Source: Deltaproteobacteria bacterium (lineage in GTDB: Bacteria; Desulfobacterota_D; UBA1144; Nemesobacterales; CSP1-2). Taken from it: 64,000 bases of DNA. Below the pieces are notes generated by a model. The model was not told where the DNA came from, did not search any database, and saw only the letters and a program-made list of their open reading frames with translations. The position numbers and the translations under genes were made by a program. Below, one piece after another: positions 9,656 through 60,446 of the stretch (position 1 is its first letter; every line of letters begins with the position of its first letter). The stretch spans positions 224,001 to 288,000 of the forward strand of contig JBQTHB010000003.1 in assembly GCA_052390235.1 (NCBI GenBank), written 5' to 3'.

Positions 9656-11722
9656 TCATGATGTGGACGCATCCGTCTCATGAGCGCGGCTGATAGTGTC
9701 TCCCGCCCCCGCGCCGTATAAAACGGGAACGAGCGAGATTTTCCTCCTCAGAGGGTCAACGCTCCGCACCACAAGAGCGATTTCATCCCCCTCGCGCATC
9801 TCGAACTGAACCGGTATCGGCGTCTCAAATAGATAATCCATCAGATACGCCGATGCCCCTCTGTCGGAGACATAGCTCACGACGCCGCGAATCTCTCGTC
9901 CCTCGAAATCCTTTAGATATTTAAGGAGCCAGTATCTATCTCTGGTTCGCTGAATCATCTTCTTCTCCCTAAGCCCAAGCTCTATCTGCATATACATCCG
10001 CTCAAGCTCCTCGGCCGAGTAAGCCGCGCCCTCGCCCGTGAGTTCGCCAATAATCTGCCTGTGCAAAACGAGGTCGAAATATCGCCTTATGGGGGAGGTA
10101 ACTTGCACATAAACGTCAAGCCCAAGGGACTGATGCGGCTCAGGGCACAAACCCACTCTCGCGGGTTTGAGAAACTTCACCGCCCGAAGCGCAAAGAGCG
10201 GGTCGTTCTCATCGAGAGACTTTGCGTCGTCCGAAATCGGTTCGGACTGGGAGCGAAACACCCCCGGAATTTCCTTGTCCCTGAGAAATCTTCCGGCAAG
10301 CCAGTTCATAAGTATCATGCACTCGGATACTACGGTGTTCGCCACGGTGTTCATATAAATTTTTCTAATCGTAATGCCGCCGTCTTGGCGAATACCGATT
10401 TTAATCTGCGGAAGCTCCACGAGAAACGCCCCCGCGTCAACCCTCTTTTTGCGGAGCGCTGAGGAGAGCGCAATTAATTTCCGCCCCCAAGAGCTTTGCC
10501 CGAAAAAATTCTCGCTCTCCGTGTAGGTCAGATTTCTCCTCACGGCGATTTTCGATTGTGTAAATCTGTAGCTCCTGAGGTTAAATGTCTCATCGAACGA
10601 GGCTAGAAGCGAGAGCGAGAGCTTGGACGCGCCTTGAAACAGGCTCAGTTTCTCCCTGATGAGTTCCTTGGGAAACATATGGATGTGTCCTTCGGGGATA
10701 TAGATAGTCTCTCCGCGCCTTGCCGCCTCTTCGTCAAGCGGACTCCATTTCGGGATAAAAGCGGCGACGTTGGCAATATGGACTCCGAGAGTGAATCCCT
10801 CCTGAGTTTCCGTGAGCGAGATGGCGTCGTCAATGTCCTCAGTGGTCTCGTCGTCAACCGAATAGGCTTCGAGGTGCGTGAGGTCTTCGACGCCCTCTTC
10901 CGGGGCGGAATCGTCAATTATGCGGCGCAACTCTTCGGTCGCCTTTTTGGGGAATCTGCCGTCAACGCCGAGGCGGCGGAGTATCGGGTCTTCGTCCTCT
11001 CGCCAGCATCCGGCTTTGATTAAAAATTCAAGCGCGCCTTCGACGTCTCGAATCCCGGATTCAGCCATGAAGGATTTGGCGTCCGTCGCCCTCTCGAATT
11101 TATCGAGATGAATCACATACCCCTTGAGAAGCTCCACAAATCCGGCGAAATCCCCCGCGTCGGCGGATGAGTCGTCGCGCTCTTCGGCGATGGCCCTTGC
11201 CCACTTCACAGCGGCGCGCCTCTCGGCGATTTTCTTGGATTCGAGCTCTCTTCGATGGACAATATCCTCGACATCTTTCACCGTGTGAGGGATGTAGCCG
11301 CACTCTCCTCTCTTAAAATAGACTTCGGTTTTCTCTATAGCCCAGAAGAGCAGAAGCGCCTCTTTTTGGCGGGTGGATGAGTCTTTGCCCAAGTACAGCT
11401 CGATGATTTCGTCCAGGGTTATCTCTGCGCCGAGGTCAAAAACGCACTCCCAGATGGTTTTGAGGTCAACCTTCGGGACGCTCTCGTCAAGCTCGCGCCT
11501 CAGCCCCCGCAAAGCGAGTTTCTTCTCGGATTGATTGAGTTCGTCGCTGAGCTTAATGCCAGCCGGGAGAACCACTTTTTCATAATCCACCTCGACCTCT
11601 TTGCCCTCTTCCGAGAACACAGAGAATTTCGCCCCCGCACCCTCGGTTATTACGCCAAGGGAAGGCTCTTTCCTCTTTCTGAATATAATAACTTCGCCGT
11701 GCTTCGGTATTCTTTTAATCAT
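9656..11722 (-). CDS. RNB-domain exoribonuclease (RNase II family)
   Basis: SVDDETTEDIDDAIS catalytic motif, VTSPIRRYFDL, C-terminal S1-like region. Confidence 0.88.
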   Translation of the reverse strand: MIKRIPKHGEVIIFRKRKEPSLGVITEGAGAKFSVFSEEGKEVEVDYEKVVLPAGIKLSDELNQSEKKLALRGLRRELDESVPKVDLKTIWECVFDLGAEITLDEIIELYLGKDSSTRQKEALLLFWAIEKTEVYFKRGECGYIPHTVKDVEDIVHRRELESKKIAERRAAVKWARAIAEERDDSSADAGDFAGFVELLKGYVIHLDKFERATDAKSFMAESGIRDVEGALEFLIKAGCWREDEDPILRRLGVDGRFPKKATEELRRIIDDSAPEEGVEDLTHLEAYSVDDETTEDIDDAISLTETQEGFTLGVHIANVAAFIPKWSPLDEEAARRGETIYIPEGHIHMFPKELIREKLSLFQGASKLSLSLLASFDETFNLRSYRFTQSKIAVRRNLTYTESENFFGQSSWGRKLIALSSALRKKRVDAGAFLVELPQIKIGIRQDGGITIRKIYMNTVANTVVSECMILMNWLAGRFLRDKEIPGVFRSQSEPISDDAKSLDENDPLFALRAVKFLKPARVGLCPEPHQSLGLDVYVQVTSPIRRYFDLVLHRQIIGELTGEGAAYSAEELERMYMQIELGLREKKMIQRTRDRYWLLKYLKDFEGREIRGVVSYVSDRGASAYLMDYLFETPIPVQFEMREGDEIALVVRSVDPLRRKISLVPVLYGAGAGDTISRAHETDASTS

Positions 11723-44730: not shown

Positions 44731-45786
44731 TTACTTGAACGTCGGACGATAGCCCGTCGTAATCTCAGGGCGCGGATGCCTCCATTTAGGTTCTTTGTTC
44801 AGGGTGTCATTGGTGAATTTGCGCAGCGCCCTCATCGCTCCGCCGTAGATTCCGCTCACGGAGGTGGACATCTTGCTTCCCGGAGGAGCGTCCATAAACG
44901 GCATGAATTTGTCGGGGAATCCGGGCATCGTGCATCCAATGCAGATTCCGCCCACGTTCGGACAGCCGCCTATGCCAGCCATCCATCCCCTCTTCGGGAC
45001 GTTGCAGTTGACCACGGGCCCCCAGCATCCGAGCTTCACTATGCACTTGGGCGAGCCATATTCCGTGGCAAAATCCCCTTCTTCGTAGTAACCGGCTCTA
45101 TCGCACCCGTCGTGAACGGTTTTGCCAAATAGCCACTCCGGCCTAAGAGCCTCGTCAAGTGGAATCATCGGAGCAAGCCCCGCCACCATGTAGAGCAGAT
45201 ACAGCACGGTTTCCATAAAATTATCGGGCTGCACCGGGCATCCGGGGACATTTACTATCGGGACTCCAGCTTTCGATTTCCAGTCCCACCCCAAGTAGTC
45301 GGCAACGCCCATCGCTCCCGTTGGGTTTCCCGCCATTGCGTGGATGCCGCCGTAAGTGGCGCATGTGCCGCAGCAGACCACGGCTAGAGCCTTCGGGGCA
45401 AGCCGGTCTATCCACTCATTCGTGGTTATGGGCTGTCCGGTTTCTTTATTCGTTCCCATAGCCGCCCAATAACCCTCGCTTTTTATCTTCTCGTTGGGTA
45501 TTGAGCCTTCCAAGACCAATACGAAGGGGTCAAGCTCCCCGCGTTCAGCCATATACCAATATTTCATAAAATCGTCCCCGACCTCGTACGCGAGAACCGG
45601 ATTATGTATATGCACCCTCGGAAGCCCCGGAATAGCCCCCAAGACAATGTCCTCGAGGCTGGGCTGAGTGGCGGCGGTTATCGAAACCGAATCGCCGTCG
45701 CATCCGAGACCGGTCGTCATCCAAACTATGTGAATATCCGGTACCGGGGACGGTCTCTGCGTTTTCTGTCCATAGTACTCTGCCAT
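44731..45786 (-). CDS. hhyS: Group 1h [NiFe]-hydrogenase small subunit
   Basis: GLGCDGDSV (Asp in place of a proximal-cluster Cys), GTCATYGGIHAM, PGCP, HDGCDR, GGCPNVGGICIGC; no Tat leader. Confidence 0.95.
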   Translation of the reverse strand: MAEYYGQKTQRPSPVPDIHIVWMTTGLGCDGDSVSITAATQPSLEDIVLGAIPGLPRVHIHNPVLAYEVGDDFMKYWYMAERGELDPFVLVLEGSIPNEKIKSEGYWAAMGTNKETGQPITTNEWIDRLAPKALAVVCCGTCATYGGIHAMAGNPTGAMGVADYLGWDWKSKAGVPIVNVPGCPVQPDNFMETVLYLLYMVAGLAPMIPLDEALRPEWLFGKTVHDGCDRAGYYEEGDFATEYGSPKCIVKLGCWGPVVNCNVPKRGWMAGIGGCPNVGGICIGCTMPGFPDKFMPFMDAPPGSKMSTSVSGIYGGAMRALRKFTNDTLNKEPKWRHPRPEITTGYRPTFK

Positions 45787-46097
45787 TGTAGTTCCCTCCC
45801 TTCAAAATAGATTTAAGAAACGGTTGCCTGAGCTTTAGGGGAATGAACTGCGCGTAGGAGGCGGCAGCGAAGAGAAACCTATGGCGGATTAGCCTGGCTA
45901 CGAAAAAACGGGCGGCGCGGCGTGTGAGTATGAGATTAAGAACACAATTCCAAGGCGTGAATAGCGTCGGACGCGATACAACCCGCCCACTTCACTCTCA
46001 CCTAATTTACTGCTTTCCTTCCCCGATTTTTCCTTTTTCTCTCATTTGGCTTAAGTCGAATATTTTGTAGAGATAATACCAACTGAAAGTTATTACC

Positions 46098-46127
46098 ATC
46101 TTATCAAAAACGATAATTATTTGTCAA
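46098..46127 (-). promoter_or_regulatory. Putative sigma-70 promoter of the hhy operon
   Basis: Minus strand TTGACA-N18-TAAGAT with extended -10 TG, in an AT-rich intergenic region. Confidence 0.5.
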
Positions 46128-46306
46128 GGGGTTTTTTAAAGTTAATACGAAATATCATACCAATGGAGTTCTCACCAATAATTAAAAATGATTTCAGCGC
46201 CGTGCCCGCACTGCAGTTCATCCCAAAGAGGGTCTGTCATGCTGAGGACATTCACTAGGTTTGTGCTAGAGAAGAAAATTTATTAAGGGGGGGGAAATCA
46301 GCGCTT

Positions 46307-47308
46307 TCAGTCAAGCGGCGTTGAGAGCTTTTTAAAAAATCGGAGTGTCTTAAGTAGCCTCATGCCTACTAGAGTGGGAGAGTATTCGACTCTAGGGGGA
46401 ATCTCGGCGTACATTTGCCGCTCTATCAGACCCCCCTCTTCGAGTTCGTCGAGCCGCTGGGACAGAGTAGAAGGGCTTATTTTAGGGAATTTATCTCTGA
46501 TTTCGCCGAATCTGAGGGTTTTATTGCTCTCAAGGAGGTTCAGTATGAATACGGCGTGTTTTTTCCCTATGATGTGGACTATGTCCCCGTTTGGGGAATC
46601 CCCGTCTTGCTCCATGTAGGGGAATTCCACCGAGGCGTGAGGGAGTTCGTAGTCGTCGAGGCGAAATTCCTTGAGACGGGCGAGCCGCCATTCAATTTCC
46701 GAGACATCGTCGGTAACGGAGGGGTGTATATAATAGGGATTCCCGCAAAAGCAGTCCCCGACTACGGCAAGGGGGTGAGTCCTAAACGCCTGATTGACAA
46801 AGGACGAGGGGAGCTTGCGGCGGTTGTACTGGCATACGATTTTCGCTGGCACGTCGGGGGTGAAAATAGAATTTATCTCGGCTTCCCAGCGCTCCAATTT
46901 TTCCGCGTCAATATCGTCTGAGCCTAGAGTCCAGGTCATCTCAACGGCGAATCGGACACCGCTAAAACCGGCGGCGAGAGAGTCATCTATGAGCCGCTTA
47001 AGCCGCGCCGCCCTTTGCGCATCCCCTACAGCGCCAAGGGCAATCCACTCGTGCTTTGTCCAAATCTCCAGCGCGCCGCGCCGGGTTTCAGCATCGGGGT
47101 CTATGCCATTCATCTTGAGAACTAAGTGAAGCTGGGCGGGAGACAGGTCGTCGGCTATATAGAAAAATCGCTCGCCTTGCTTAAGCCCCTGCTTAATAAA
47201 CGGGATGAGAGCCGGCATCTGCTCAAGCGGGTCTCTGTCGTAAATTAGACAGATATGGTCGCCCTTAGGCTCGGACATTCGATTCTCAAGCGAAGTATGG
47301 ATTTTCAT
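46307..47308 (-). CDS. MEDS sensory domain plus HxlR-type winged-helix regulator
   Basis: GDHICLIY...FIKQGL...RFAVEMTW...CQYNR...THP (MEDS); RFGEI...LSQRLDELEEGGLIER...PPRVEYS (HxlR). Confidence 0.85.
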   Translation of the reverse strand: MKIHTSLENRMSEPKGDHICLIYDRDPLEQMPALIPFIKQGLKQGERFFYIADDLSPAQLHLVLKMNGIDPDAETRRGALEIWTKHEWIALGAVGDAQRAARLKRLIDDSLAAGFSGVRFAVEMTWTLGSDDIDAEKLERWEAEINSIFTPDVPAKIVCQYNRRKLPSSFVNQAFRTHPLAVVGDCFCGNPYYIHPSVTDDVSEIEWRLARLKEFRLDDYELPHASVEFPYMEQDGDSPNGDIVHIIGKKHAVFILNLLESNKTLRFGEIRDKFPKISPSTLSQRLDELEEGGLIERQMYAEIPPRVEYSPTLVGMRLLKTLRFFKKLSTPLD

Positions 47309-47582: not shown

Positions 47583-49589
47583 TCACAGTTGCAGTCTAAG
47601 AATGCGTTTTATCTCATTTGCAATCCCTCCCGCCGAGATGCCGTAGAGGTTCAGCAGTTCTTCGGGCTTTCCCGACCTCGGCATCCCGCGCACGGCGAGC
47701 TTGAAAACCCGCACACCCTCCGCCCCAACCGCATCCAGCACGGCATCGCCCACGCCTCCCTCGGCGTAGTGGTCCTCAACTGTGAGAATCAAATTATCAG
47801 TCTCCGAAGCCGCCTTGAGGAGCGTATCGCGGTCAACGGGCTTGACCGAGTAGAGGTCTATTACGCGAACCGAGATGTTTTCTCTGCGTAGCTCCTCGTG
47901 AGCCCCAAGCGCTTCGTGAACGGTTACGCCGGCGGCGACGACGGTCAATTTGTCATAATCTCCCGCCCGTAGCGTCTTACACCCGCCTATGGCAAACACC
48001 TCGTCTGCGGGATAAATTACGGGGGTTTTCGGTCTGCTCGCGCGTATATAGACAATTCCCTTATGTGCCGCCGCAAGAGCGGTAACGCGCTCGGCTGACA
48101 CGGCGTCCGATGGATACAGCACAACCGACCCGGCTACGGCGCGCATCATCGCAATATCCTCAAGCCCCATTTGAGATGGGCCATCCTCGCCAATGGAAAC
48201 CCCGACGTGCGAGCCGCAGAGTTTTATATTTGCCCGCGACACCCCAGCCATTCGGATCTGGTCAAAGGCGCGCGTGAGGAAACAGGCAAAGCTCGAGGCA
48301 AAGGGAATTTTCCCGCGCGTCTGAAGCCCCACGGCGACTCCTATCATGTTCTGCTCGGCGATATAGCACTCGATGAAGCGCTCGGGGAACTCAAAGAGGA
48401 ATTTCTCGGAAAAAGTCGAATTCTTAACGTCGGCGTCCAGCGCAACCACGTTTTCGTTAGCGCGCCCTAATTTCGCCAAAGCGACTCCGTAAGCCTCGCG
48501 CGTTGCCGCCATGAACCCCATTTCGTAATCCGGCGGCTCTACAGATACTATTGGCGGCGGATTCGGAGTGAATGAGCGCGGCGCCCTGCCAGATGCTTCG
48601 TGCCAATAGTCCATGAGCCTGTCGTCTATGTCGCCCGCGCCGGGGATTTGCTCAAATTCTCCCTCCGAGGGCGGCGCGATTCGCAGAGTCGGCTCTTCGC
48701 CCTCAATCGCCAGTTCTCCCATCGCCTGCTCCAGCATACTCCCCTTGGGAACGGCTTTTCCGTGCCAGCCGTCCTTATCCTCGAGAAACGACACCCCTCT
48801 GCCCTTAAACGTTTTAGCGAGTATCACCGAGGGACGAGCGGGGCTGTGCTTTGCCCATTCAAAAGCCGAGACAACCTGCTCCATATCGTGTCCGTCAATT
48901 ACGGCGGCGCGCCAGCCGAACGCCTCAAATCGCCTTTTATACGATTCCACATCATGCCCGCAGGCGGTGCGCCCGCTCTGTCCGAGACCGTTTATATCCA
49001 CGAGAGCGGTCAAATTATGTAGCCTATGGTGCGAGGCGAGCGCCGCCGCTTCCCACACGCTCCCCTCCGCCGTCTCGCCGTCGCCCATAAGCACATATAC
49101 GTTATAACCCAGCGCGTCGAGCCTGCCGGCAAGCGCCATGCCGACCCCTATGGAAAGTCCCTGCCCAAGAGAGCCTGTAGCGACTTCCGACCAAGCAAGG
49201 CGTGGCGTGGGGTGTCCCTCCAGTTCGCTGTCAATTCGCCTCAGCGTCATGAGGCGTTCAAAGGGAAACGCCCCCGCCTCAGCCCACGCGGCGTAGAGTA
49301 TCGGGGCGGCGTGTCCCTTTGATAACACCACGCGGTCGTTTCGAGGGTTTAAGGGATTCGCAGTTTCATAGCGCAGGGCGTAGAAAAAGAGCGCCGCAAT
49401 TAAATCGGCAGAGGACATACAAGTTGTGGGATGCCCTGAGCCGGCTTCGCTCGTCATCCTGAGCGAATGTTGCCGCAGCCTTGCCGCCACGCCCTTGAGA
49501 CGCAGGATGAGACCCTGACGGTCGCCCCCATCGAGAGTCGCCGCCGGTTCTCCACCCCCGCCGGATTCGATTAGTATAGGCTGTCTCAT
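47583..49589 (-). CDS. tkt: Transketolase
   Basis: SGHP, LSKGHAAP, EGHP, TGSLGQG, GDGETAEG, IAEQNM, GEDGPSQ; start moved to ATG 49589. Confidence 0.92.
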   Translation of the reverse strand: MRQPILIESGGGGEPAATLDGGDRQGLILRLKGVAARLRQHSLRMTSEAGSGHPTTCMSSADLIAALFFYALRYETANPLNPRNDRVVLSKGHAAPILYAAWAEAGAFPFERLMTLRRIDSELEGHPTPRLAWSEVATGSLGQGLSIGVGMALAGRLDALGYNVYVLMGDGETAEGSVWEAAALASHHRLHNLTALVDINGLGQSGRTACGHDVESYKRRFEAFGWRAAVIDGHDMEQVVSAFEWAKHSPARPSVILAKTFKGRGVSFLEDKDGWHGKAVPKGSMLEQAMGELAIEGEEPTLRIAPPSEGEFEQIPGAGDIDDRLMDYWHEASGRAPRSFTPNPPPIVSVEPPDYEMGFMAATREAYGVALAKLGRANENVVALDADVKNSTFSEKFLFEFPERFIECYIAEQNMIGVAVGLQTRGKIPFASSFACFLTRAFDQIRMAGVSRANIKLCGSHVGVSIGEDGPSQMGLEDIAMMRAVAGSVVLYPSDAVSAERVTALAAAHKGIVYIRASRPKTPVIYPADEVFAIGGCKTLRAGDYDKLTVVAAGVTVHEALGAHEELRRENISVRVIDLYSVKPVDRDTLLKAASETDNLILTVEDHYAEGGVGDAVLDAVGAEGVRVFKLAVRGMPRSGKPEELLNLYGISAGGIANEIKRILRLQL

Positions 49590-49648
49590 CGCTACTCCCT
49601 CCCTGAATTTTGTATTTTCTGAGCTAGACTCATTCCCGAATCGCGCAT

Positions 49649-49957
49649 TCAGCGCCGGCGCTGTCGGTGTGCGTCGCGCGGGCTGTCTATAGCAAGGGGA
49701 TACCTCTGCGCGCCGAAGCCCTTCTCGACCAGCTCGCATAGCTCTTTCATCCCCCCCGCGGACTCGTCGCCGTGTTTGGCGGAGCGCTCAGCCCCAGTCC
49801 ACAAACCGCAGGTATCTGAGCCGCAGGTTGCGCACGTCCAGACGCCGTAGAGTATCTTATAGCCGTTCTTACTCGTATTTGAGTCCAGCACTTCAAATGC
49901 GAGAAAGTCTCCGCATTCTTCACACCTGTCGTTCGTGCGTATTATCCTCTCGTTCAT
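49649..49957 (-). CDS. Small Cys-rich hypothetical protein (possible zinc ribbon)
   Basis: CEEC and CATC pairs; fills the prk-tkt gap on the operon strand. Confidence 0.45.
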   Translation of the reverse strand: MNERIIRTNDRCEECGDFLAFEVLDSNTSKNGYKILYGVWTCATCGSDTCGLWTGAERSAKHGDESAGGMKELCELVEKGFGAQRYPLAIDSPRDAHRQRRR

Positions 49958-50046: not shown

Positions 50047-51054
50047 TTACGCATAGACAGGTTCGTCTTGTGCCGCCTCCTTCTGCGAGCGCACCCGGCT
50101 GAGGGCGGCAACCGGTGTGGCAAACGGCACGGACGTCCCGTTGTAGGCGCGAATCACATGGTAAGTGAGTAGGAGCTGCGCTAGGGCAAGCGGGTGGCTG
50201 TGGCGCGCCTCGACGCCGTCCTGATAAGAGCCAAGCTGCCGACCGGACAACGGACGCGGCTCGGGGAAATGAGCCAAAACGGCCTCTTCGAGTATCGTCG
50301 CACTCTCAGGGGTTACGCTTCCGTCAATCTCAAGAAAATCCGCCGGACGACCGCCGTCGCGCCCAAGCCTAAGGCGCATCCCAGGGGCGCGGGAATCATC
50401 AAACAAGTAACTCAGGTCAGGATGGGGTATCGTGGGGCGTAGCACAAAGCCGACGTTAAGGTCTCCATTCGCCCGCTCGGCGCTGATGCCTTCTGGGGGA
50501 TAGAACTTCATCACAATATCGGACGATTCCCTCTGGGGGCGGATGAAATCCTGCGAGTCGCCCTCGCGCTTGTCGAGTTCCGCCAGCACCTGCTCGACCG
50601 TGTAGCCGCGCTTTGTGGTGTCGCGCTTGACCTTCCATAGCCGCCGCAGGTCTTCAGGGGGGTCTAAATACACTTTTACGTCGTAGAATCGGCGCATCAC
50701 CGGGGAGTGGAAGCCAAGCAGTCCCTCGACGATGACAAACTCCTTGGGCTGAACGTACTCAGGGCGGATAATAGAGCCTGTGGAGTGGTCATAGACGGGT
50801 TTGAGAATCGGTTGCCCGTAGTGCAGTCGCTCCAGATGAAGCTCCAGAATGTCGAGGTAGTTGCAGTCCGGGTGGAGGGCCGTGATGCCGAGTTTCGCCC
50901 GCTCACGCCGGTCATATTTATGGTAGTCGTCGGTGCAGACGTGGGTAACGCGCTCCTCGCCAAGGAGGTTAACCAGCCCCCTCGTAATTGTGGTTTTGCC
51001 GGACGCGCTGTCGCCTACAATGCCAAGTATTATCGGTCGCTGCGGTGTGGTCAT
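50047..51054 (-). CDS. prk: Phosphoribulokinase
   Basis: GDSASGKTT, DDYH, KPVYDH, EGL, KVKRD...RGY; within the cbb operon. Confidence 0.92.
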   Translation of the reverse strand: MTTPQRPIILGIVGDSASGKTTITRGLVNLLGEERVTHVCTDDYHKYDRRERAKLGITALHPDCNYLDILELHLERLHYGQPILKPVYDHSTGSIIRPEYVQPKEFVIVEGLLGFHSPVMRRFYDVKVYLDPPEDLRRLWKVKRDTTKRGYTVEQVLAELDKREGDSQDFIRPQRESSDIVMKFYPPEGISAERANGDLNVGFVLRPTIPHPDLSYLFDDSRAPGMRLRLGRDGGRPADFLEIDGSVTPESATILEEAVLAHFPEPRPLSGRQLGSYQDGVEARHSHPLALAQLLLTYHVIRAYNGTSVPFATPVAALSRVRSQKEAAQDEPVYA

Positions 51055-51084: not shown

Positions 51085-52032
51085 TTAATTATCCTCCGCC
51101 GACGCGTCAATTCCCCCTCGAAAAACACGGCTTTGTCGTATGTCGGCGGCGTCAATCCGCGCGAGTTCTCCTTTAGTAATCCGCCCCCCTCGGCTCACGA
51201 GGCGGCTCGCGTGCCGGAGCCTGAAGCGGTCAATTGCGTTGCGCACGCTTCGCCCGTTGGCAAAGTGGGGCTGACTAATCCTCAGCTGCAGATACTCCCG
51301 AAACGCCTCCCTCGCCTCGGCGTCGAAGCAGTACATCTGGCGCGCGAGGAGTAGCTCTCCAATGGCAGTCAGCTCGTCCATCGAGTAATCGGGAAAATCA
51401 ATGTGATGGGCGATGCGGGAGCGAAATCCTGGGTTATATTGAAAAAACGTGTCCATTCTATCTCTGTATCCGGCGAGGATTACAACTAAATCGTCGCGGC
51501 GGTTTTCCATCACCTGAAGGAGCATCTCAATGGCCTCCTGCCCGTAGTCGCGCTCGTTTTCAGGGCGGTACAGATAATACGCCTCGTCAATAAACAACAG
51601 CCCTCCGGCGGCTTTTTTGAGCGCCTCTTTGGTCTTCGGCGCAGTGTGTCCCACGTACTGCCCCACGAGGTCGTCGCGCGTTGCCACAACCAAGCGGTCG
51701 TGGCGCAGATACCCAAGGCTATGGAGAATTTTCGCCATCCTGAAGGCAACCGAGGTCTTTCCCGTGCCGGGGCGCCCTGTGAAGCTCATGTGGAGCGTCG
51801 GCGGGTCGGCGGCAAGCCCCGCCCTCTTGCGCAGGCTATCCACCAAGAGCAGAGCCGCAATCTCCCGAATGCGGGATTTCACAGGGGCAAGCCCGACTAG
51901 CTCGCGGTCTAGGTCGCCGAGAATATCGCCGATATTGGACGCGCGCCTAGTCTCGTCTATATCCAGATACAGCGTCTCGTTTTCTTCGGGCATTTCCAGC
52001 TCCGATACCGATTCCGCGTTTGTGCTTTTCAT
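51085..52032 (-). CDS. cbbX: Red-type Rubisco activase CbbX
   Basis: LVGLAPVKSRIREIAALL, GRPGTGKT, LVGQYVGHTAPKT, FIDEAYYLYRPENERDYGQE. Confidence 0.96.
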   Translation of the reverse strand: MKSTNAESVSELEMPEENETLYLDIDETRRASNIGDILGDLDRELVGLAPVKSRIREIAALLLVDSLRKRAGLAADPPTLHMSFTGRPGTGKTSVAFRMAKILHSLGYLRHDRLVVATRDDLVGQYVGHTAPKTKEALKKAAGGLLFIDEAYYLYRPENERDYGQEAIEMLLQVMENRRDDLVVILAGYRDRMDTFFQYNPGFRSRIAHHIDFPDYSMDELTAIGELLLARQMYCFDAEAREAFREYLQLRISQPHFANGRSVRNAIDRFRLRHASRLVSRGGRITKGELARIDAADIRQSRVFRGGIDASAEDN

Positions 52033-52129: not shown

Positions 52130-52552
52130 TTAATCCCCATAACGCCGCCCCGAGGGATTCACCGCAGCGTAGGAGCGTATCGTGTATCTGATTTGACGGT
52201 CTGCAAACTCCGTCCTCTCAACGTGAAATCCCGGCTCATCCTTCGGGCGGTTTACGATGAAACTCATCGCTGTCGTCTGCCTGCCGAGAGAGCGGTCGTA
52301 GCCGCTTACCTTTATATAGCGATTCGGGAAAGCCTCTCGACACTCGGCGATGGCGCGCATTACGGCGGCGTGGTCATTCATATCGAACATGGGCAGTCCC
52401 CACATCTCCCAGTAGGTGTTGCGCGGGTGAGGGTCGTCTGTATGCTCAATTGAAACTGGCCAGCCGTTTTTGAGGCAGTAGCGCACTTGATAGGCTATCT
52501 CCTCGTCGGAGAAATCGGGCAGATATGAAAATGTGCCTTGAGTGATTCTCAT
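52130..52552 (-). CDS. cbbS: Rubisco small subunit (red type)
   Basis: [32 protein letters not shown], red-type C-terminal extension. Confidence 0.96.
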
Positions 52553-52633
52553 CGAAAGCCTCCTTAATCTATATGATTTACGCCGCAAGATTCCGAGCAG
52601 GCATCGTCTACACGCTCATCTGCGCATCCCGAA

Positions 52634-54109
<1,476 letters not shown>

Positions 54110-54307: not shown

Positions 54308-55690
54308 TTATTCATTGTCTAAGCCTCGCGCGAATAAATGCCGGATGGGGGCTTTAATCGCCTCGTCCATCCCATCCTGAAAGTTGATAAAATCCCCGAC
54401 AGCGAGCAGGCTATAGAGGGTGTCGAGGGGGAGTTTTTGCGTCAATGGGGAGTCTAAATCCGGCAGTTTCCCCTTGCGCAACTCCCGCCACTCGGATTCG
54501 GTCGGGGCGTAGAAAAAATCCCCGAACCCTGCCTCGTCGAAACGCTTGAAGAGATTGTCGCCGTCGGTAACCTCGGCGGACTGTCGAAGTTCCGTGAGAA
54601 ACTCCACAAATTCTGGCTCGACTCTGTACAGACGCTCGATTTTCTCCATTGCCAATTTCTCCCCTCCCAATTTTTCCAGGACTCTATCGGAAACCCCAAG
54701 CCTGTCTGAATAATCCGCATCGAGGCGATTTTTTATATCCCCCGGACCCATATCGCTCTGAGCGAAAAATTCCTTCAGCGCCGGGTAAGGCACGGTATAA
54801 ACGTCGCACCCAGCGGTCAGGGGTATCGTCTGCCATCTCCTCACGCTCGCCGCCATATTCAGGGTTTTCACGCCTAGGGTATTTCTAATACGCCTGATGT
54901 GCCTCTGAGTTTTGAGAGTCGTGTGTTCGCCGAGGAGTTCAGAGTCCATGCCCTGATTTAGCCTGCCGAGAAATATATTCGCGCGGTGAACATCAGCCAG
55001 CAGGGCGGCGGCAACGACTTGCCGCGCCGAGAAAGTGGCGGTGAAATTCACTGCAATTCCCTGCCTCTCAAGGCCGCGCGCAATGAGTAGCGAGTGCGGA
55101 TAATCGGGCGTGAAAGCCACTTTGACAAAGCAGTTCGGCACGGCTTGGGCGAGACACCAGCCGGCGCGCCTCGATGCCTCCGGGTCTTTGGCAAGAGCCG
55201 TGTGAAGCTCAAGGCTTATACGCCAAGTCCTATGGGCGGCGTAGGCGTTTAGCGCTTCGAGTCCGAGCCGTCCATTGATGATGCTATAAATCAGCGCCGC
55301 CGCCTCGTCAACGGTTAAATCCGGCTTCTCCTCTAGGAGCGCGCGTGTCCATGAGACGATATTATCCCCATCGCCGCCTCCAAAAAATCTGCCGAGTACT
55401 TTCATGATTAGGGGCTGATTCGTGGTATTGCCGTCTATCTCGGTATAGAGCTTCACGCCGTCGTCATCTTCAGTGTGGACTGCGAGGTCGTGGAGTTCCT
55501 CTCGGTCGGCGGTGTCGGCGTAAATGTGAGCCGTGCCGCAGTCCCTGAGGGCGGAGAGGAGCGGATGGGAGACAAACCCTACGGGCTTTGCGGGCGGCAA
55601 TTTTGCCTGAGCCGCTTTTATCAGCTTCACTAATCGTCTGTCCAATGCCATCGCATGGGTTTTGGGTTTCAGCGTCGCTATCGCACTCAT
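54308..55690 (-). CDS. Transaldolase-family protein
   Basis: YADTA, NTTNQPL, FVKV (Schiff-base Lys), VNFTATFSARQ, IFLGRL, AASVR; start taken at ATG 55690 (GGGAG RBS). Confidence 0.8.
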   Translation of the reverse strand: MSAIATLKPKTHAMALDRRLVKLIKAAQAKLPPAKPVGFVSHPLLSALRDCGTAHIYADTADREELHDLAVHTEDDDGVKLYTEIDGNTTNQPLIMKVLGRFFGGGDGDNIVSWTRALLEEKPDLTVDEAAALIYSIINGRLGLEALNAYAAHRTWRISLELHTALAKDPEASRRAGWCLAQAVPNCFVKVAFTPDYPHSLLIARGLERQGIAVNFTATFSARQVVAAALLADVHRANIFLGRLNQGMDSELLGEHTTLKTQRHIRRIRNTLGVKTLNMAASVRRWQTIPLTAGCDVYTVPYPALKEFFAQSDMGPGDIKNRLDADYSDRLGVSDRVLEKLGGEKLAMEKIERLYRVEPEFVEFLTELRQSAEVTDGDNLFKRFDEAGFGDFFYAPTESEWRELRKGKLPDLDSPLTQKLPLDTLYSLLAVGDFINFQDGMDEAIKAPIRHLFARGLDNE

Positions 55691-55733: not shown

Positions 55734-55748
55734 GCAACTGCCGTGCCA
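55734..55748 (-). promoter_or_regulatory. Sigma-54 (-24/-12) promoter of the tal-cbb operon
   Basis: Minus strand TGGCACGGCAGTTGC matches TGGCACG-N4-TTGC; about 44 bp upstream of ATG 55690. Confidence 0.8.
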
Positions 55749-55778
55749 AGCGTCGTGGGCAACGCTAAATTCGCAGTA

Positions 55779-55801
55779 AATCAAACAATTTCAATAGCTT
55801 G
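55779..55801. promoter_or_regulatory. IHF-like binding site(s)
   Basis: AATCAAACAATTT and TTTCAATAGCTTG, each one mismatch from WATCAANNNNTTR, between promoter and candidate UAS. Confidence 0.45.
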
Positions 55802-55844
55802 CGATTGAGACAGAATTCTCTGCCAGATGGAGTTGCCGCACCGC

Positions 55845-55885
55845 TGAGACACCGCTGGCACAGCTAGTGAGACGGCGATGTCTCA
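55845..55885. promoter_or_regulatory. Candidate upstream activator sequences
   Basis: Perfect TGAGAC-N6-GTCTCA at 55868-55885, imperfect TGAGAC-N6-GGCACA at 55845-55862, extra TGAGAC half-site at 55806. Confidence 0.6.
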
Positions 55886-56236: not shown

Positions 56237-57289
56237 ATGTTAAACAACCCATATTACTCGCAGGATGTCCACGGGCCCTTTGAGCTTTACGACATCGGCA
56301 ACCACACGCTCGAAGAAGGCGGCACAATACGGGGCTGCAAGCTCGCCCACGCGACCTTCGGCGCTCTGAACGCCGCAAAAGATAACGCCATCGTCGTTCC
56401 AACGTGGTACTCAGGCACGAGCAAAATCATGGAGCAGGTCTATATCGGAGCGAATCACGCCCTAAACCCAGAGAAGTATTTCATCATCGTCATAAACCAA
56501 ATCGGCAACGGGCTATCGAGTTCGCCGCATAACACGCCTTTTCCGGGCGGCATGGGCAATTTCCCCCATGTTAGAGTCGGCGACGACGTGCGCGCGCAAC
56601 ACAAGCTGGTTACGGAGAAATACGGCATCTCTAGCCTTGCCCTCGTCGTAGGAGGCTCGATGGGCGCTCAGCAGACTTATGAATGGGCAGTGAGATTCCC
56701 CGATATGGTAAAACGCGCCGCCCCGATAGCCGGAACTGCGCAGAACACAGAACACGATTTTCTCTATACGCAGACGCTGATGGACGCAATCACATCAGAC
56801 CCCGGATACAGGAACGGGTTTTATTCATGCAACACCGAGGTTCACGACGGATTAAGACGGCACGCCAAGATGTGGGCAGTGCTGGGTTGGAGCACCGAAT
56901 TTTTCCAGCAGAGGCGATATGCGGATTTAGGCTTCTCCTCGATGGACGATTTTCTCAACAGCTTTATGTTCTACTACTTCGGCTCGATGGATCCGAATAA
57001 TCTGCTGAGAATGGCGTGGAAGTGGCAGAGGGGGGACGTCGCCCGCAACACCGGAGGCGACCTCAAGGCGGCGCTCGGACGCATCAAGGCGAAGGTCTTT
57101 ACGATGCCGATTGACGAGGATATGTTCTTCCCGCCGAGGGACTGCGAAGCGGAGCAGAAGATGATTCCGAACAGCGAATTTCACGTGATAAAGAGCATTG
57201 ACGGGCATTTGGCGCTATTCGGCACTGACCCGAATTATATAGGGCAGGTTGACGCGTGCCTCAATAAACTGCTGGCGACTGCGGTTTAA
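56237..57289 (+). CDS. MekB-like acetyl-ester hydrolase (homoserine acetyltransferase-like alpha/beta hydrolase)
   Basis: HGPFEL, PTWYSGTSK, NQIGNGLSSS, GGSMGAQQ nucleophile, AWKWQRGDV, SIDGH; resembles Pseudomonas veronii MekB as recalled. Confidence 0.8.
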   Translation: MLNNPYYSQDVHGPFELYDIGNHTLEEGGTIRGCKLAHATFGALNAAKDNAIVVPTWYSGTSKIMEQVYIGANHALNPEKYFIIVINQIGNGLSSSPHNTPFPGGMGNFPHVRVGDDVRAQHKLVTEKYGISSLALVVGGSMGAQQTYEWAVRFPDMVKRAAPIAGTAQNTEHDFLYTQTLMDAITSDPGYRNGFYSCNTEVHDGLRRHAKMWAVLGWSTEFFQQRRYADLGFSSMDDFLNSFMFYYFGSMDPNNLLRMAWKWQRGDVARNTGGDLKAALGRIKAKVFTMPIDEDMFFPPRDCEAEQKMIPNSEFHVIKSIDGHLALFGTDPNYIGQVDACLNKLLATAV

Positions 57290-57385: not shown

Positions 57386-58732
57386 TTAACTCCCGGACTT
57401 ATAATCGCGGGCTGAGAACTTGTGCTTAGCCATCAAGCGGTGAAACGTGCGGCGCGGCACTTTGGCAATTGCCGCCGCCTTGGTGATATTCCCCCTCGAT
57501 TCAATGAGATAATTTAGAATCTCCTGCCTCTCGTGGCGGTCAATGAAGCGGCCCTTATCCTCCAGAAATCCCCGTCCCGTCTCGCCGGCATCTATCGCCT
57601 GTACGTGGAACGGCAGATGCTCCGGCTCGATGGCGGAGGACACCGTCAGCACAACGGCCCTTTCTAGCACGTTTTCAAGCTCTCTGAGATTTCCGGGCCA
57701 TGAGTAGCCACGGAGATGATACATAGCCGCCGGGGATATTGCCTCGACCATCTTATTGACCTTAGCCCTAGCTTTGTCGAGAAAATGCACGGCGAGCCGG
57801 GGGACGTCCTCGATTCTCTCCCGTAGCGGGGGGAGAGCGATGGTAAAGGTATTGATGCGGTAAAAGAGGTCTTCGCGGAATTTCCCCTCGCGGATGGCGT
57901 ATTCCAAGTCCCGATTGGTGGCGGCGATGACCCTTACTGATATTCTCTTTGTGCGAACCTCGCCCACAGGGCGTATTTCGCCGGTCTGAAGGGTTCTGAG
58001 GAGTTTCGCCTGAGTGTCGGGGGACATATCGCCGATTTCATCGAGGAAAACAGTTCCGCCGTCGGCTTTTTCAAATAGCCCGATTCTATCCGAAGATGCG
58101 CCTGTGAACGCGCCGCGCTTGTAGCCGAAAAGCTCGCTCTCCAGCAGTCCGGCGGATAGGGCCGTGCAGTTGATTGTTACAAGAGGGAAGTTGCTAAGCG
58201 CGCTTCGGCGGTGAATGGCTCTTGCGGCGAGTTCCTTGCCCGTGCCGCTTTCGCCGCGAATCAGCACCGTGGTCGGAGTCGGGGCTACTTTGGCTATAAG
58301 CTCGGCGACCTGCCTCATTTTTGGATTATCGCCGATGACAAATTCCGAATCCGAGTTTTGCTCAAGCTCTCTGAGGGCGAGGCGGTAGCGCTCTTTTAGG
58401 GTTTTCGCCTGAGCCTGAGCCTCGATGAATTCCCAGAAAAGGCGCGCCCCCACGGGACCTATAAGCTCGGTTCGCTCGGATTTGAGGGAGTAAATCTCCC
58501 TGCAGGCTTCGGGGTTTCCAGTGGCATCAATTATGAGGTCGGCGGGTACGGAGGGAATGAGTTGCCTGTAGTCGGTCGTAACGGGAATCCCGAGTCCCTT
58601 TGCGATGACAAAGCCCACTGCCCGCTCGTCAATATCGGCGACCCCGACGACCTTAACCGCCGGGGCTTGGAAAAATAGATTGAGAAGCGCCTGCCCGCCC
58701 CTGCCCGCTCCAACTATTATGACTCGCTTCAT
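57386..58732 (-). CDS. Sigma-54-dependent activator (bEBP) with N-terminal Rossmann-fold domain
   Basis: N-terminal VIIVGAGRGG...VGVADID; GESGTGKE, ELFGYKRGAFTGA, FLDEIG, FREDLFYR, WPGNLREL; C-terminal Fis-type HTH. Confidence 0.92.
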   Translation of the reverse strand: MKRVIIVGAGRGGQALLNLFFQAPAVKVVGVADIDERAVGFVIAKGLGIPVTTDYRQLIPSVPADLIIDATGNPEACREIYSLKSERTELIGPVGARLFWEFIEAQAQAKTLKERYRLALRELEQNSDSEFVIGDNPKMRQVAELIAKVAPTPTTVLIRGESGTGKELAARAIHRRSALSNFPLVTINCTALSAGLLESELFGYKRGAFTGASSDRIGLFEKADGGTVFLDEIGDMSPDTQAKLLRTLQTGEIRPVGEVRTKRISVRVIAATNRDLEYAIREGKFREDLFYRINTFTIALPPLRERIEDVPRLAVHFLDKARAKVNKMVEAISPAAMYHLRGYSWPGNLRELENVLERAVVLTVSSAIEPEHLPFHVQAIDAGETGRGFLEDKGRFIDRHERQEILNYLIESRGNITKAAAIAKVPRRTFHRLMAKHKFSARDYKSGS

Positions 58733-58797: not shown

Positions 58798-59118
58798 CTA
58801 ATGCCCGCGTTGGGGCCAGGGGGCATCAAGGGGCCACCTGCAACGGTCAACCCCGCCCGACATTGACTCCATCTCGGCGAGGAGGTCGTCATAAAAGGCG
58901 CGCCACGCCGCAACCCCGGCATTCGGCGCCGGGAAATTTCCCGAAAAAAATAGCCACGCCTCTGGCATAGAATCGGTAGAAGAGGGACTAAACGGAAGCG
59001 ATTCGTCCGCCACTGCGGCGCGCCGCCAAGCGTATTCCTCGCCGCGCCGCTCGATATAGACCATCTCGCCGTCCAGATTTGAAGCCATAAGCTCGGAAAA
59101 CAGCTCTTCTCGGCTCAT
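58798..59118 (-). CDS. Hypothetical protein
   Basis: 106-aa ORF with GAGGAGGGGG RBS, co-oriented between the nuclease-like gene and the bEBP. Confidence 0.6.
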   Translation of the reverse strand: MSREELFSELMASNLDGEMVYIERRGEEYAWRRAAVADESLPFSPSSTDSMPEAWLFFSGNFPAPNAGVAAWRAFYDDLLAEMESMSGGVDRCRWPLDAPWPQRGH

Positions 59119-59147: not shown

Positions 59148-60446
59148 TTAGCGTCTGGCTTTGTCCGGCGGCATCCCCCCTCGGTCTAGGGAGAACGTAG
59201 AGCCGCCGAGGCGCCCCGGCTCGAATTCCGAATCCCCCATGCTCTTGCGGTAAAATTCCGAGAGTTGAGGGGAGGCGTCCTGCCCCTCGTTCATCGCAAT
59301 GCAGGGCTTCACAAAAGCGCAGGTGGAGCAGTTCTCCCTAGATGGGCTTGGATAAATCCGAACCTCAGGATTTGCCATCTCCATAGCCTCCATCACGATT
59401 TGCCGCCCGAAATTCTCAATTGCCGCCCGGCTCCTCGGAACGTGCGTGCGGCGAAAGGAATCCCCGCAGAACGTCTGTTTCATCGTGAAATCGGGTTCTC
59501 GTATAGCTTGCAGATAAATACGGCGCGAGGGGCTAGCTTTGGGGGCGGGGTTTGGTTTATTTGGAAAATTCGAGGGATTAGAGGGGATTTGCCCGCCCGA
59601 TGGGGATGAGTCCTTGCGAAGCTCGTTATAGACGACGCCCGCGATTTTCATTCCGGGGAAATAGCTCTCAAGCGCCCAGCAGTGAGAGAGTTCCCGCTCG
59701 TCGAGCAGGAGATTTTCCGCATACTCCCACGCGCCTTCCACGACCCTGTGTTTAATTATCCAGTAGGCGTTATATTCGTCCACCGCGAGCAGATTCACAC
59801 GCCCCCTGTAGCGTATGGGCAGAACGGGAATGGCGCCGGGAACAACCAAATCCTGCCCCGGGCGGGCGGGGTCTGGGATATTCACCTCGAAATCCGGCTC
59901 AACCTGAATCGGCGAGAAATCGTCAACCGAAGCCGCCCACTCGAAATAGCGATTCAGCATCAGCTCGCCGAAGGCTAGTTGCGCCTCATGGTCAGGGGAC
60001 TCCATCCCGCCGCCGCCGAATTTATCCCTCTGATTGCGCATAGATTTATAGAACCCCTCAATTACGAGCGGCAGGACAATTCGGCGATTCCACTCCCACA
60101 TACCGGGGAAATAATATACGGCAAGGGCGTCGCTTATAGCCCGCTGAAAGTCAAGCGCCCGTGATGTTCCGACCGGCTCGAAATTCCCCCGCTCGCCGCT
60201 TTGAAAATTCCAAGCGCGCCGACACCTCTTAAATAGCTCTCTTTCCTGAGTGCGGATGATATAAGCCCACGCCACCGAGGTTTTCCCCTTTTTTGGGTGT
60301 GATGATTCGGCAGGGAGCGGCTCGATTTGCGCCGCCGGGCGGCTACTGTTGGGAGCGCGTGGAGGGGTCGAAATCAGCAGAGGGGGAGATTGAGCGTCCG
60401 GCGCGTCGGATGAAAAAAAGCCGCCATCGCCATAGTTCAATTTCAA
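59148..60446 (-). CDS. Cas4/AddB-like PD-(D/E)XK-fold protein with 4-Cys motif, degenerate active site (start uncertain)
   Basis: FKRCRRAW near N-terminus plus PSPSRENCSTCAFVKPC; YRGRVNLL...YWIIKHR at the catalytic motif positions. Confidence 0.7.
   Translation of the reverse strand: MKLNYGDGGFFSSDAPDAQSPPLLISTPPRAPNSSRPAAQIEPLPAESSHPKKGKTSVAWAYIIRTQERELFKRCRRAWNFQSGERGNFEPVGTSRALDFQRAISDALAVYYFPGMWEWNRRIVLPLVIEGFYKSMRNQRDKFGGGGMESPDHEAQLAFGELMLNRYFEWAASVDDFSPIQVEPDFEVNIPDPARPGQDLVVPGAIPVLPIRYRGRVNLLAVDEYNAYWIIKHRVVEGAWEYAENLLLDERELSHCWALESYFPGMKIAGVVYNELRKDSSPSGGQIPSNPSNFPNKPNPAPKASPSRRIYLQAIREPDFTMKQTFCGDSFRRTHVPRSRAAIENFGRQIVMEAMEMANPEVRIYPSPSRENCSTCAFVKPCIAMNEGQDASPQLSEFYRKSMGDSEFEPGRLGGSTFSLDRGGMPPDKARR

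Follow-up and report, generated by a model that had tools for sequence, protein, structure and literature searches.

The repressor Rex carries an N-terminal winged helix and dimerizes via its dinucleotide-binding domain, with the C-terminal helix swapped. Bacterial cbb operons are, according to the accessible part of PMC6458275, generally controlled by CbbR, with redox input by RegAB and with metabolite effectors, and the effectors reported for CbbR include ATP and NADPH; in Ktedonobacteria a cbbR gene upstream of rbcLS has been reported (accessible part of the preprint 10.64898/2025.12.07.692797). BkdR (YqiR), the sigma-54 activator of the bkd operon in Bacillales, is described with PAS/PAC domains only, a Rossmann domain going unmentioned in the accessible part of PMC4428206. 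The 64-kb stretch of DNA analysed here, referred to as the window, contains the Calvin-cycle operon tal-cbbL-cbbS-cbbX-prk-tkt and the gene of a sigma-54 activator, P0001, whose input domain is of the Rossmann type. A search of the literature, most subscription journals lying outside it, found neither sigma-54 control of a cbb operon nor this sensor, and the P0001 family is apparently an undescribed, conserved one-component sigma-54 activator for Calvin-cycle genes.

The activator P0001 and the cbb operon of the window

P0001 is composed of a Rossmann sensor (residues about 1-92), a long helix (93-129), an AAA+ domain with GAFTGA (132-382) and a Fis-type helix-turn-helix (HTH, 401-436); the corresponding features of the window are compiled in Table 1. 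Pfam Sigma54_activat (PF00158) covers residues 132-298 (E 3e-68) and the AAA lid residues 304-382, and HTH_8 on 401-436 scores slightly below its cut-off (21.6 bits against 22, E 1.9e-4); in close relatives HTH_8 is above the cut-off or listed. The translation contains VIIVGAGRGG and VGVADID as well as the Walker A motif GESGTGKE, GAFTGA and the Walker B motif FLDEIG, so that P0001 has what marks a sigma-54 enhancer-binding protein, an AAA+ domain with Walker A, Walker B and GAFTGA and a C-terminal Fis-type HTH. An earlier note on this DNA had claimed that GAFTGA, AAA+ and Fis-HTH are intact, which Pfam and the motifs in the 448-residue translation confirm, and that the input domain is a dinucleotide-binding fold in place of REC, GAF or PAS. 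The latter claim is likewise borne out: three Rossmann models of Pfam, DapB_N, GFO_IDH_MocA and CoA_binding, match residues 2-83, all slightly above cut-off and mutually overlapping, and REC, GAF and PAS have no Pfam match in P0001. A LysR domain is absent by Pfam and NCBIfam, the Rex family is without a match in Pfam or among the NCBIfam matches listed, and none of the named NCBIfam activators reaches its cut-off among the 25 matches listed. The genome contains rpoN and ten sigma-54 activators, and P0001 alone among these carries the Rossmann sensor. On the activator's strand, two open reading frames further upstream (58798-59118 and 59148-60446) have no Pfam or NCBIfam match and are unmatched in the 43 related loci described below.

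Table 1. Coordinates of the activator gene, the cbb operon and their control elements, in positions of the window.
Feature	Position	Strand	Remarks
MEDS-HxlR regulator gene	46307..47308		between tkt and the hydrogenase small subunit
Transketolase (tkt)	47583..49739	-	Pfam/NCBIfam
Phosphoribulokinase (prk)	50047..51054	-	Pfam/NCBIfam
RuBisCO activase (cbbX)	51085..52032	-	TIGR02880, above cut-off
cbbS	52130..52588	-	Pfam
Red-type form I RuBisCO large subunit (cbbL)	52634..54085	-	profile and PDB matches
Transaldolase-family gene	54308..55690	-	first of the operon; ATG at 55690 probable start
Sigma-54 -24/-12 promoter TTGGCACGGCAGTTGC	55734..55749	-	predicted, sequence match
Possible IHF site AATCAAACAATTT	55779..55791	+	between enhancer and promoter; one mismatch
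Weak third site	55806..55823	.	single good half; score 5.5
Second candidate enhancer TGAGACA-CCGC-TGGCACA	55845..55862	.	23 bp from first; score 15.2, second in genome
Candidate enhancer palindrome TGAGACG-GCGA-TGTCTCA	55868..55885	.	about -135 from promoter; score 18.6, best in genome
MetX-like alpha/beta hydrolase	56237..57289	+	opposite strand; separates activator from enhancer
Sigma-54 activator P0001	57386..58732	-	448 aa; intact frame
Rossmann sensor domain	58457..58732	-	G8-x-G10-x-x-G13, Asp33 ending strand 2, D69-x-T71-G72

The promoter is the sole strict TGGCA[CT]-N5-TTGC site within the window and faces the operon. The distance of 1.5 kb once given between gene and promoter holds for the enhancer sites, the promoter itself being 1.64 kb from the end of the activator gene. 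Four TGAGAC words are found at 55806-55885, and each of the other 24 strict sigma-54 sites of the genome has at most one TGAGAC or GTCTCA within 220 nt upstream. The MetX-like gene has no match across the 43 related loci and is therefore probably a later insertion; the spacing of the window sites (-135, -112 and -73) differs from that usual in the family. Orthologues have their enhancer at the stop codon of the activator; for a remnant there in the window the matrix score is -4.9, and this candidate was rejected. The possible IHF site differs from the IHF consensus at one position. For the transaldolase-family gene the ATG was preferred to a TTG further upstream, with which the frame would run into the promoter. 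The best PDB matches of the window cbbL are red-type, with CbbX encoded alongside, and the enzyme is presumably of form IE. Short TGAG-N4-CTCA inverted repeats lie right after tkt (47485-47470 and 47583-47570) and are not family sites by the matrix. Class I FBPase has two matches in the genome (C2:119977 and C5:62757), aldolase and GlpX queries from locus L186 have none, and the host may run a transaldolase variant of the Calvin cycle, with an operon that starts with a transaldolase-family gene.

Fold and relatives of the sensor domain

In the AlphaFold2 model (pLDDT 93, 65 sequences), residues 1-130 form five strands and four short helices, followed by the single long helix 93-129 that leads toward the AAA+ domain. 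With this model, Foldseek returned acylating acetaldehyde dehydrogenases first and Gfo/Idh/MocA enzymes next, and in a wide fold search inositol dehydrogenases, 4jn6 and others were tied at Z 11-12 (top 11.8), the DmpF-type and Gfo/Idh/MocA matches having an rmsd of 1.7-2.0 A across about 90 residues at Z 11.4-11.8. A single-sequence search of the PDB with P0001 gave nothing significant, a profile being required; the profile reached 7z3s at E 4.8e-9 and Rex 5zz5 at E 2.6e-4, and Rex is not among the fold-search matches listed. The Rossmann fold is backed by the AlphaFold2 model and the fold searches alike, and the assignment of the input domain to an NAD-binding-type Rossmann fold is supported by the prediction. 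The glycines are well kept in alignment A3 (G8 in 64/65 rows, G10 in 63/65, G13 in 59/65), and position 33 is Asp in all 30 rows of alignment A2 and Asp or Glu in 64 of the 65 rows of A3. In the model, strand E26-32 is followed by D33, which places this Asp at the tip of strand 2; it aligns with the Asp of Rex 5zz5 and of the Gfo/Idh/MocA protein 6z3c, but with Gly in DmpF-type enzymes. A strand-2 Asp or Glu binds to the hydroxyls of the adenosine ribose and is unfavourable to NADP, and the Asp is also compatible with ATP, ADP, AMP, SAM and FAD (accessible part of PMC4777477). Since GxGxxG and the beta-2 Asp are kept, the ligand of the sensor may be NAD(H) or another adenosine compound; because Asp33 is tied to an unmodified adenosine ribose, against NADP, NAD(H) would be the best guess and the adenylates its main rival. 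On the strength of motifs and model, NAD(H) is the ligand toward which we lean.

Beyond P0001, a search with the sensor domain gave 958 matching clusters at 50% identity, among which the weaker matches may include enzymes. The 96 matches scanned, the best of 102 long matches among the top 150, have as domain partners HisKA (46), GGDEF (17), the sigma-54 domain (10) and MCPsignal (3). A protein that is, by reading of its C-terminus, a soluble chemoreceptor also begins with the domain. The same domain stands at the N-terminus of a Brevibacillus protein encoded upstream of leucine dehydrogenase-lpdA-E1-E2 genes, which we take to be BkdR from this gene context. As far as sequences tell, a Rossmann domain on a sigma-54 activator has its precedent in BkdR, and judging from the partners the domain serves as a mobile input module, shared by kinases, cyclases, chemoreceptors and activators.

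Target sites and distribution of the family

Species-representative genomes were scanned with the N-terminal alignment, which gave 43 loci. Full-length orthologues of 58-69% identity are present at 24 of these, mostly in Acidobacteriota, with one in Verrucomicrobiia, one in Cytophagia and one in another bacterium; cbbL follows downstream on the same strand in 22 of them, the remaining two stop at a contig edge, and cbbL is absent from all 19 partial-match loci. Among 401 genomes of Terriglobales (the order of G123), form I cbbL was found in 12 and the activator in 9, all nine adjoining cbbL; six of the nine are loci additional to the representative-genome set, and the carriers are kin, hence not independent. 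The activator is missing at the other three cbbL loci. Neither a promoter-plus-enhancer upstream nor a clear regulator was found in G353 and G392, which have a cbb operon without the activator. In the class of G141 the activator occurs in 10 of 125 genomes, and the nine of these that are new to the set are placed before RuBisCO (four; RuBisCO types at 88%, 60% and 53%, the last with no cbbS match, and one truncated), before acetate genes (three) or without a visible target (two). Over the 40 homologues with context, which are not 40 independent cases because the genomes are related and mostly incomplete, 32 lie upstream of RuBisCO, two are linked via sites, and five are without a cbb link (the three acetate members and the two with no visible target); the remaining one stands at a contig break in a genome bearing cbbL. 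The RuBisCO large subunits encoded after the activator at L184 and L111 are divergent (53-55% identity), and at L184 prk comes next after the RuBisCO gene, with no cbbS match.

The activator was not found in the kin of the host, where 60 relatives and 119 other genomes of the phylum gave only weak matches, and this genome is the only one of 101 in its order in which cbbL was found, which suggests a horizontal arrival of the cbb block. LysR has no match in 33 scanned loci. A search of this genome for a CbbR-like gene was negative: the LysR part of the CbbR-like query is unmatched, and the one LysR_substrate match, on another contig, is not matched by that query. A metagenome scan with the whole of P0001 gave generic activators; L012, the single full-length match that was looked at, has a receiver domain. 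A search of the ESM Atlas with the activator gave no usable match.

A -24/-12-like site (9-12 of 12 positions matching) is located 206-259 nt past the activator stop codon in 21 of 22 orthologue loci; at L111 an insertion intervenes and a promoter-like site is 1.5 kb away. These loci share palindromes of the form TGWGACA-N4-TGTCWCA at about -243, -221 and -137, and 53 with at most three mismatches compare with a mean of 0.77 and a maximum of 4 in 200 shuffles, for a consensus derived from the same orthologue regions. An independent matrix, for which 48 sites were taken from other genomes only and none from the window, was applied to the entire 2.29-Mb genome and ranks the window sites at 55868 and 55845 first and second, as the best cluster. 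The HTH helix [IL]PRRTFHRL is nearly invariant among full-length orthologues, as a site common to the family requires. Activator and cbb locus are on separate contigs in G139 and G542, and the palindromes and the -24/-12-like site precede prk at the cbb locus; G139 also has a CbbR-like LysR gene divergent from cbbL, in addition to the activator-family sites before prk-tal. Because the homologues mostly adjoin cbb genes and the TGAGAC sites are the conserved palindrome of the family, P0001 is very likely an activator of the cbb operon, as the earlier note had supposed, and from these comparisons its target is in all likelihood the cbb promoter.

Several loci show further features. At L192 (3327-4523) a CbbR-like LysR protein of 398 aa carries an extra C-terminal HTH-like extension, its best NCBIfam match being CbbR, below cut-off, and cbbLSX and prk-tal are apparently divided between two regulators there. 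In G651, genes for a receiver-like protein, a multiheme cytochrome c and a Rieske protein are preceded by a -24/-12-like site and two palindromes of the family type (L195:1813-1911); the palindromes could mark a redox-related target or belong to another activator, which they directly follow. A conserved hairpin, GCCGGGC-CAACCA-GCCCGGC with some variants, lies between promoter and cbbL in 16 of 36 scanned loci (L090, L093-L096, L098, L099, L101, L102, L104, L105, L110, L113, L148, L153 and L155), is not found in the window, and may act as an RNA element in the leader of the cbb transcript. Nine loci have, between promoter and cbbL, a CBS-domain gene and a gene of the thioredoxin-reductase family that is FNR-like by reading of its sequence (L091, L092, L095, L098, L099, L102, L103, L153 and L155), often together with a secreted protein without NCBIfam match. 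A second palindrome, GACCGACCGGTCGGTC, in the enhancer-to-promoter interval of L106 (about 11460-11480), with similar ones in L108, L098, L092 and L095, resembles a TetR-type operator and suggests a second regulator at such loci.

Proteins in which the Rossmann domain is fused directly to AAA+ group as a single clade (100/100) that excludes BkdR, and the terminal branch of P0001 is somewhat long. The trees left out L103 (apparently frameshifted), L108 (cut), P0045, P0049 and P0054 (careful tree: 23 of 50 rows). The acetate members L189-L191, which precede a porin-like gene, a sodium/solute symporter gene and an acetate-CoA ligase gene and have the altered glycine motif GAGS[IT]S, nest with a long branch within a cbb-linked subclade. 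A clade of all non-acetate members was rejected at p-AU 0.0017, this group having been defined after the first tree was viewed and the outgroups being long. From the nested, long-branched position of the acetate members, cbb control would be the older state and acetate control the derived one.

Signal, rival readings and known systems

The proposed mechanism has P0001 activate the tal-cbbL-cbbS-cbbX-prk-tkt operon in place of CbbR, gated by NAD(H) at the Rossmann domain; drawn from sequence and a predicted model, it has in our judgement an even chance of being right. From the class of the protein it can be rationalized that HTH dimers would bind the two sites at 55845-55885, that the DNA between enhancer and promoter would loop, possibly bent by IHF, and that the AAA+ ring would open the sigma-54 promoter at 55749-55734 through GAFTGA. 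As less supported steps, GxGxxG and Asp33 might form the docking site of a dinucleotide, and the signal of a high NADH/NAD+ ratio might pass along helix 93-129 and free the AAA+ domain. Such a release would mean that the costly Calvin cycle is expressed when reductant is in surplus, whatever the donor.

That the same cbb activator reads instead the adenylate energy charge (ATP, ADP, AMP), in the manner of KTN/RCK domains, seems unlikely. The KTN, TrkA and Kef domains (TrkA 4g65 at Z 10.6, the Kef C-terminal domain with AMP 5nc8 at 10.5, KTN 1lss at 10.2) come within about one unit of the top Z, the strand-2 Asp specifies the adenosine ribose and nothing further (accessible part of PMC4777477), the CBS-domain gene of the nine loci would suit an adenylate signal, and the sensor is without the catalytic partner that would hold a nicotinamide ring; however, the sequence-profile and Foldseek matches favour NAD dehydrogenases over KTN domains, and the D-x-T-G of strand 4 matches the DAT of DmpF-type domains. 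An improbable variant is that a shortage of organic carbon is signalled to the sensor by CoA or acyl-CoA, which would fit the acetate members and BkdR. The best PDB relatives by profile or fold are the acylating dehydrogenases 7z3s, 8ih7, 1nvm and 4lrs, and for acylating acetaldehyde dehydrogenases a common site for NAD+ and CoA has been reported (in a study cited in the accessible part of PMC4762007); furthermore, Pfam CoA_binding is above cut-off on P0001, the acetate members precede symporter and ligase genes, and acyl-CoA-forming genes are under BkdR. Against this, the Gly of DmpF-type enzymes is replaced by the invariant Asp33, which would presumably clash with the 3'-phosphate of CoA, and the acetate members are nested and long-branched, with their glycine motif altered. 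Binding of NADP(H), the reductant of the Calvin cycle in many autotrophs, is decidedly improbable. Position 34 is Lys or Arg in 20 of the 30 rows of A2 and position 11 often so, which could permit NADP(H) in the family; the FNR-like gene before cbbL in nine loci and the report of NADPH as a CbbR effector (accessible part of PMC6458275) point the same way, but Asp33 is invariant and the window protein has Ile34.

Very little likelihood attaches to P0001 being a passenger that came with the cbb block and was split off from it by insertion, another activator or promoter driving the operon. The intervening MetX-like gene, the changed site spacing, the nine other activators of the genome and the somewhat long terminal branch would agree with this; on the other hand, P0001 has kept all its catalytic motifs and its HTH helix intact, the promoter retains the genome's two best sites of the family type, and G139 and G542 retain the sites despite an unlinked activator. 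Finally, an actinobacterial-type hydrogenase (best PDB match 5aa5) is encoded 1.8 kb past tkt on the same strand, and hydrogenase (2 of 101 genomes) and cbbL are both rare in the order. A sigma-70-like TTGACA-N18-TAAGAT precedes it at 46127-46098, and the interval 45786-46307 contains neither a sigma-54 site nor a matrix site scoring at least 5; the hydrogenase is unmatched in the 43 activator loci, the same type (at least 76% identity) occurs in 8 of the 24 carrier genomes, which are incomplete MAGs, and G001 has the hydrogenase without cbbL. Dedicated coupling of H2 oxidation to CO2 fixation, with the neighbouring hydrogenase co-controlled or specifically read, is thus barely credible, since the hydrogenase promoter is without sigma-54 site or enhancer; co-control was rejected, the specific H2 link proposed in the earlier note is not supported, and any H2 link would be indirect, via the cofactor pool.

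Returning to the NAD(H)-gated activator, the wider reading, to which we give slightly less than an even chance, is an undescribed sigma-54 branch of Calvin-cycle control in which NADH is read directly by a widespread, unannotated Rossmann sensor, and in which the cassette moves between phyla and replaces CbbR. A self-contained activator-enhancer-promoter cassette would then travel with RuBisCO genes of several types, and the lineages in which CbbR is replaced would be soil Acidobacteria together with other uncultured ones. Soil and subsurface bacteria would time CO2 fixation by a different logic, through an ATP-driven sigma-54 switch whose cofactor sensor is one-component. If this is true, the sensor would be a general input module for pyridine nucleotides that BkdR, kinases, cyclases and chemoreceptors have in common, and its ligand, once named, would give the signal for the domain in 958 clusters, including the overlooked N-terminus of BkdR. 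With a defined promoter, binding sites and a 92-residue sensor, the system is therefore testable in E. coli without culturing the host.

Among known systems, BkdR has an N-terminal domain like that of P0001 (34% identity over 140 aa, E 4e-18, pairwise with the Brevibacillus protein) and the same AAA+ and HTH. It differs by PAS domains between Rossmann and AAA+ domains (692 aa, against 448 aa without PAS in P0001), by its bkd target as opposed to cbb, and by its position outside the clade in trees. The closest solved relatives by profile and fold are the NAD+/CoA domains of DmpF 1nvm, 4jn6, 4lrs and PheF 7z3s, and Gfo/Idh/MocA enzymes; unlike the DmpF-type enzymes, the sensor lacks a catalytic second domain and has Asp, not Gly, at the end of strand 2. 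Rex has in common with the sensor a GxGxxG Rossmann domain and the aligned Asp ending strand 2, and the signal is possibly alike, but in Rex the winged helix comes first, whereas in P0001 the Rossmann domain is followed by AAA+ and Fis HTH. P0001 as a Rex protein was rejected, there being no N-terminal winged helix and DmpF-type and Gfo/Idh/MocA domains being closer; the analogy to Rex drawn earlier is weakened because these domains outscore Rex 5zz5 in the profile search and because the domain is also found on BkdR and many kinases. CbbR, the LysR-type master regulator of cbb operons, belongs to a protein class unrelated to P0001, and yet, like P0001, it adjoins the genes of RuBisCO and the Calvin cycle, which it controls.
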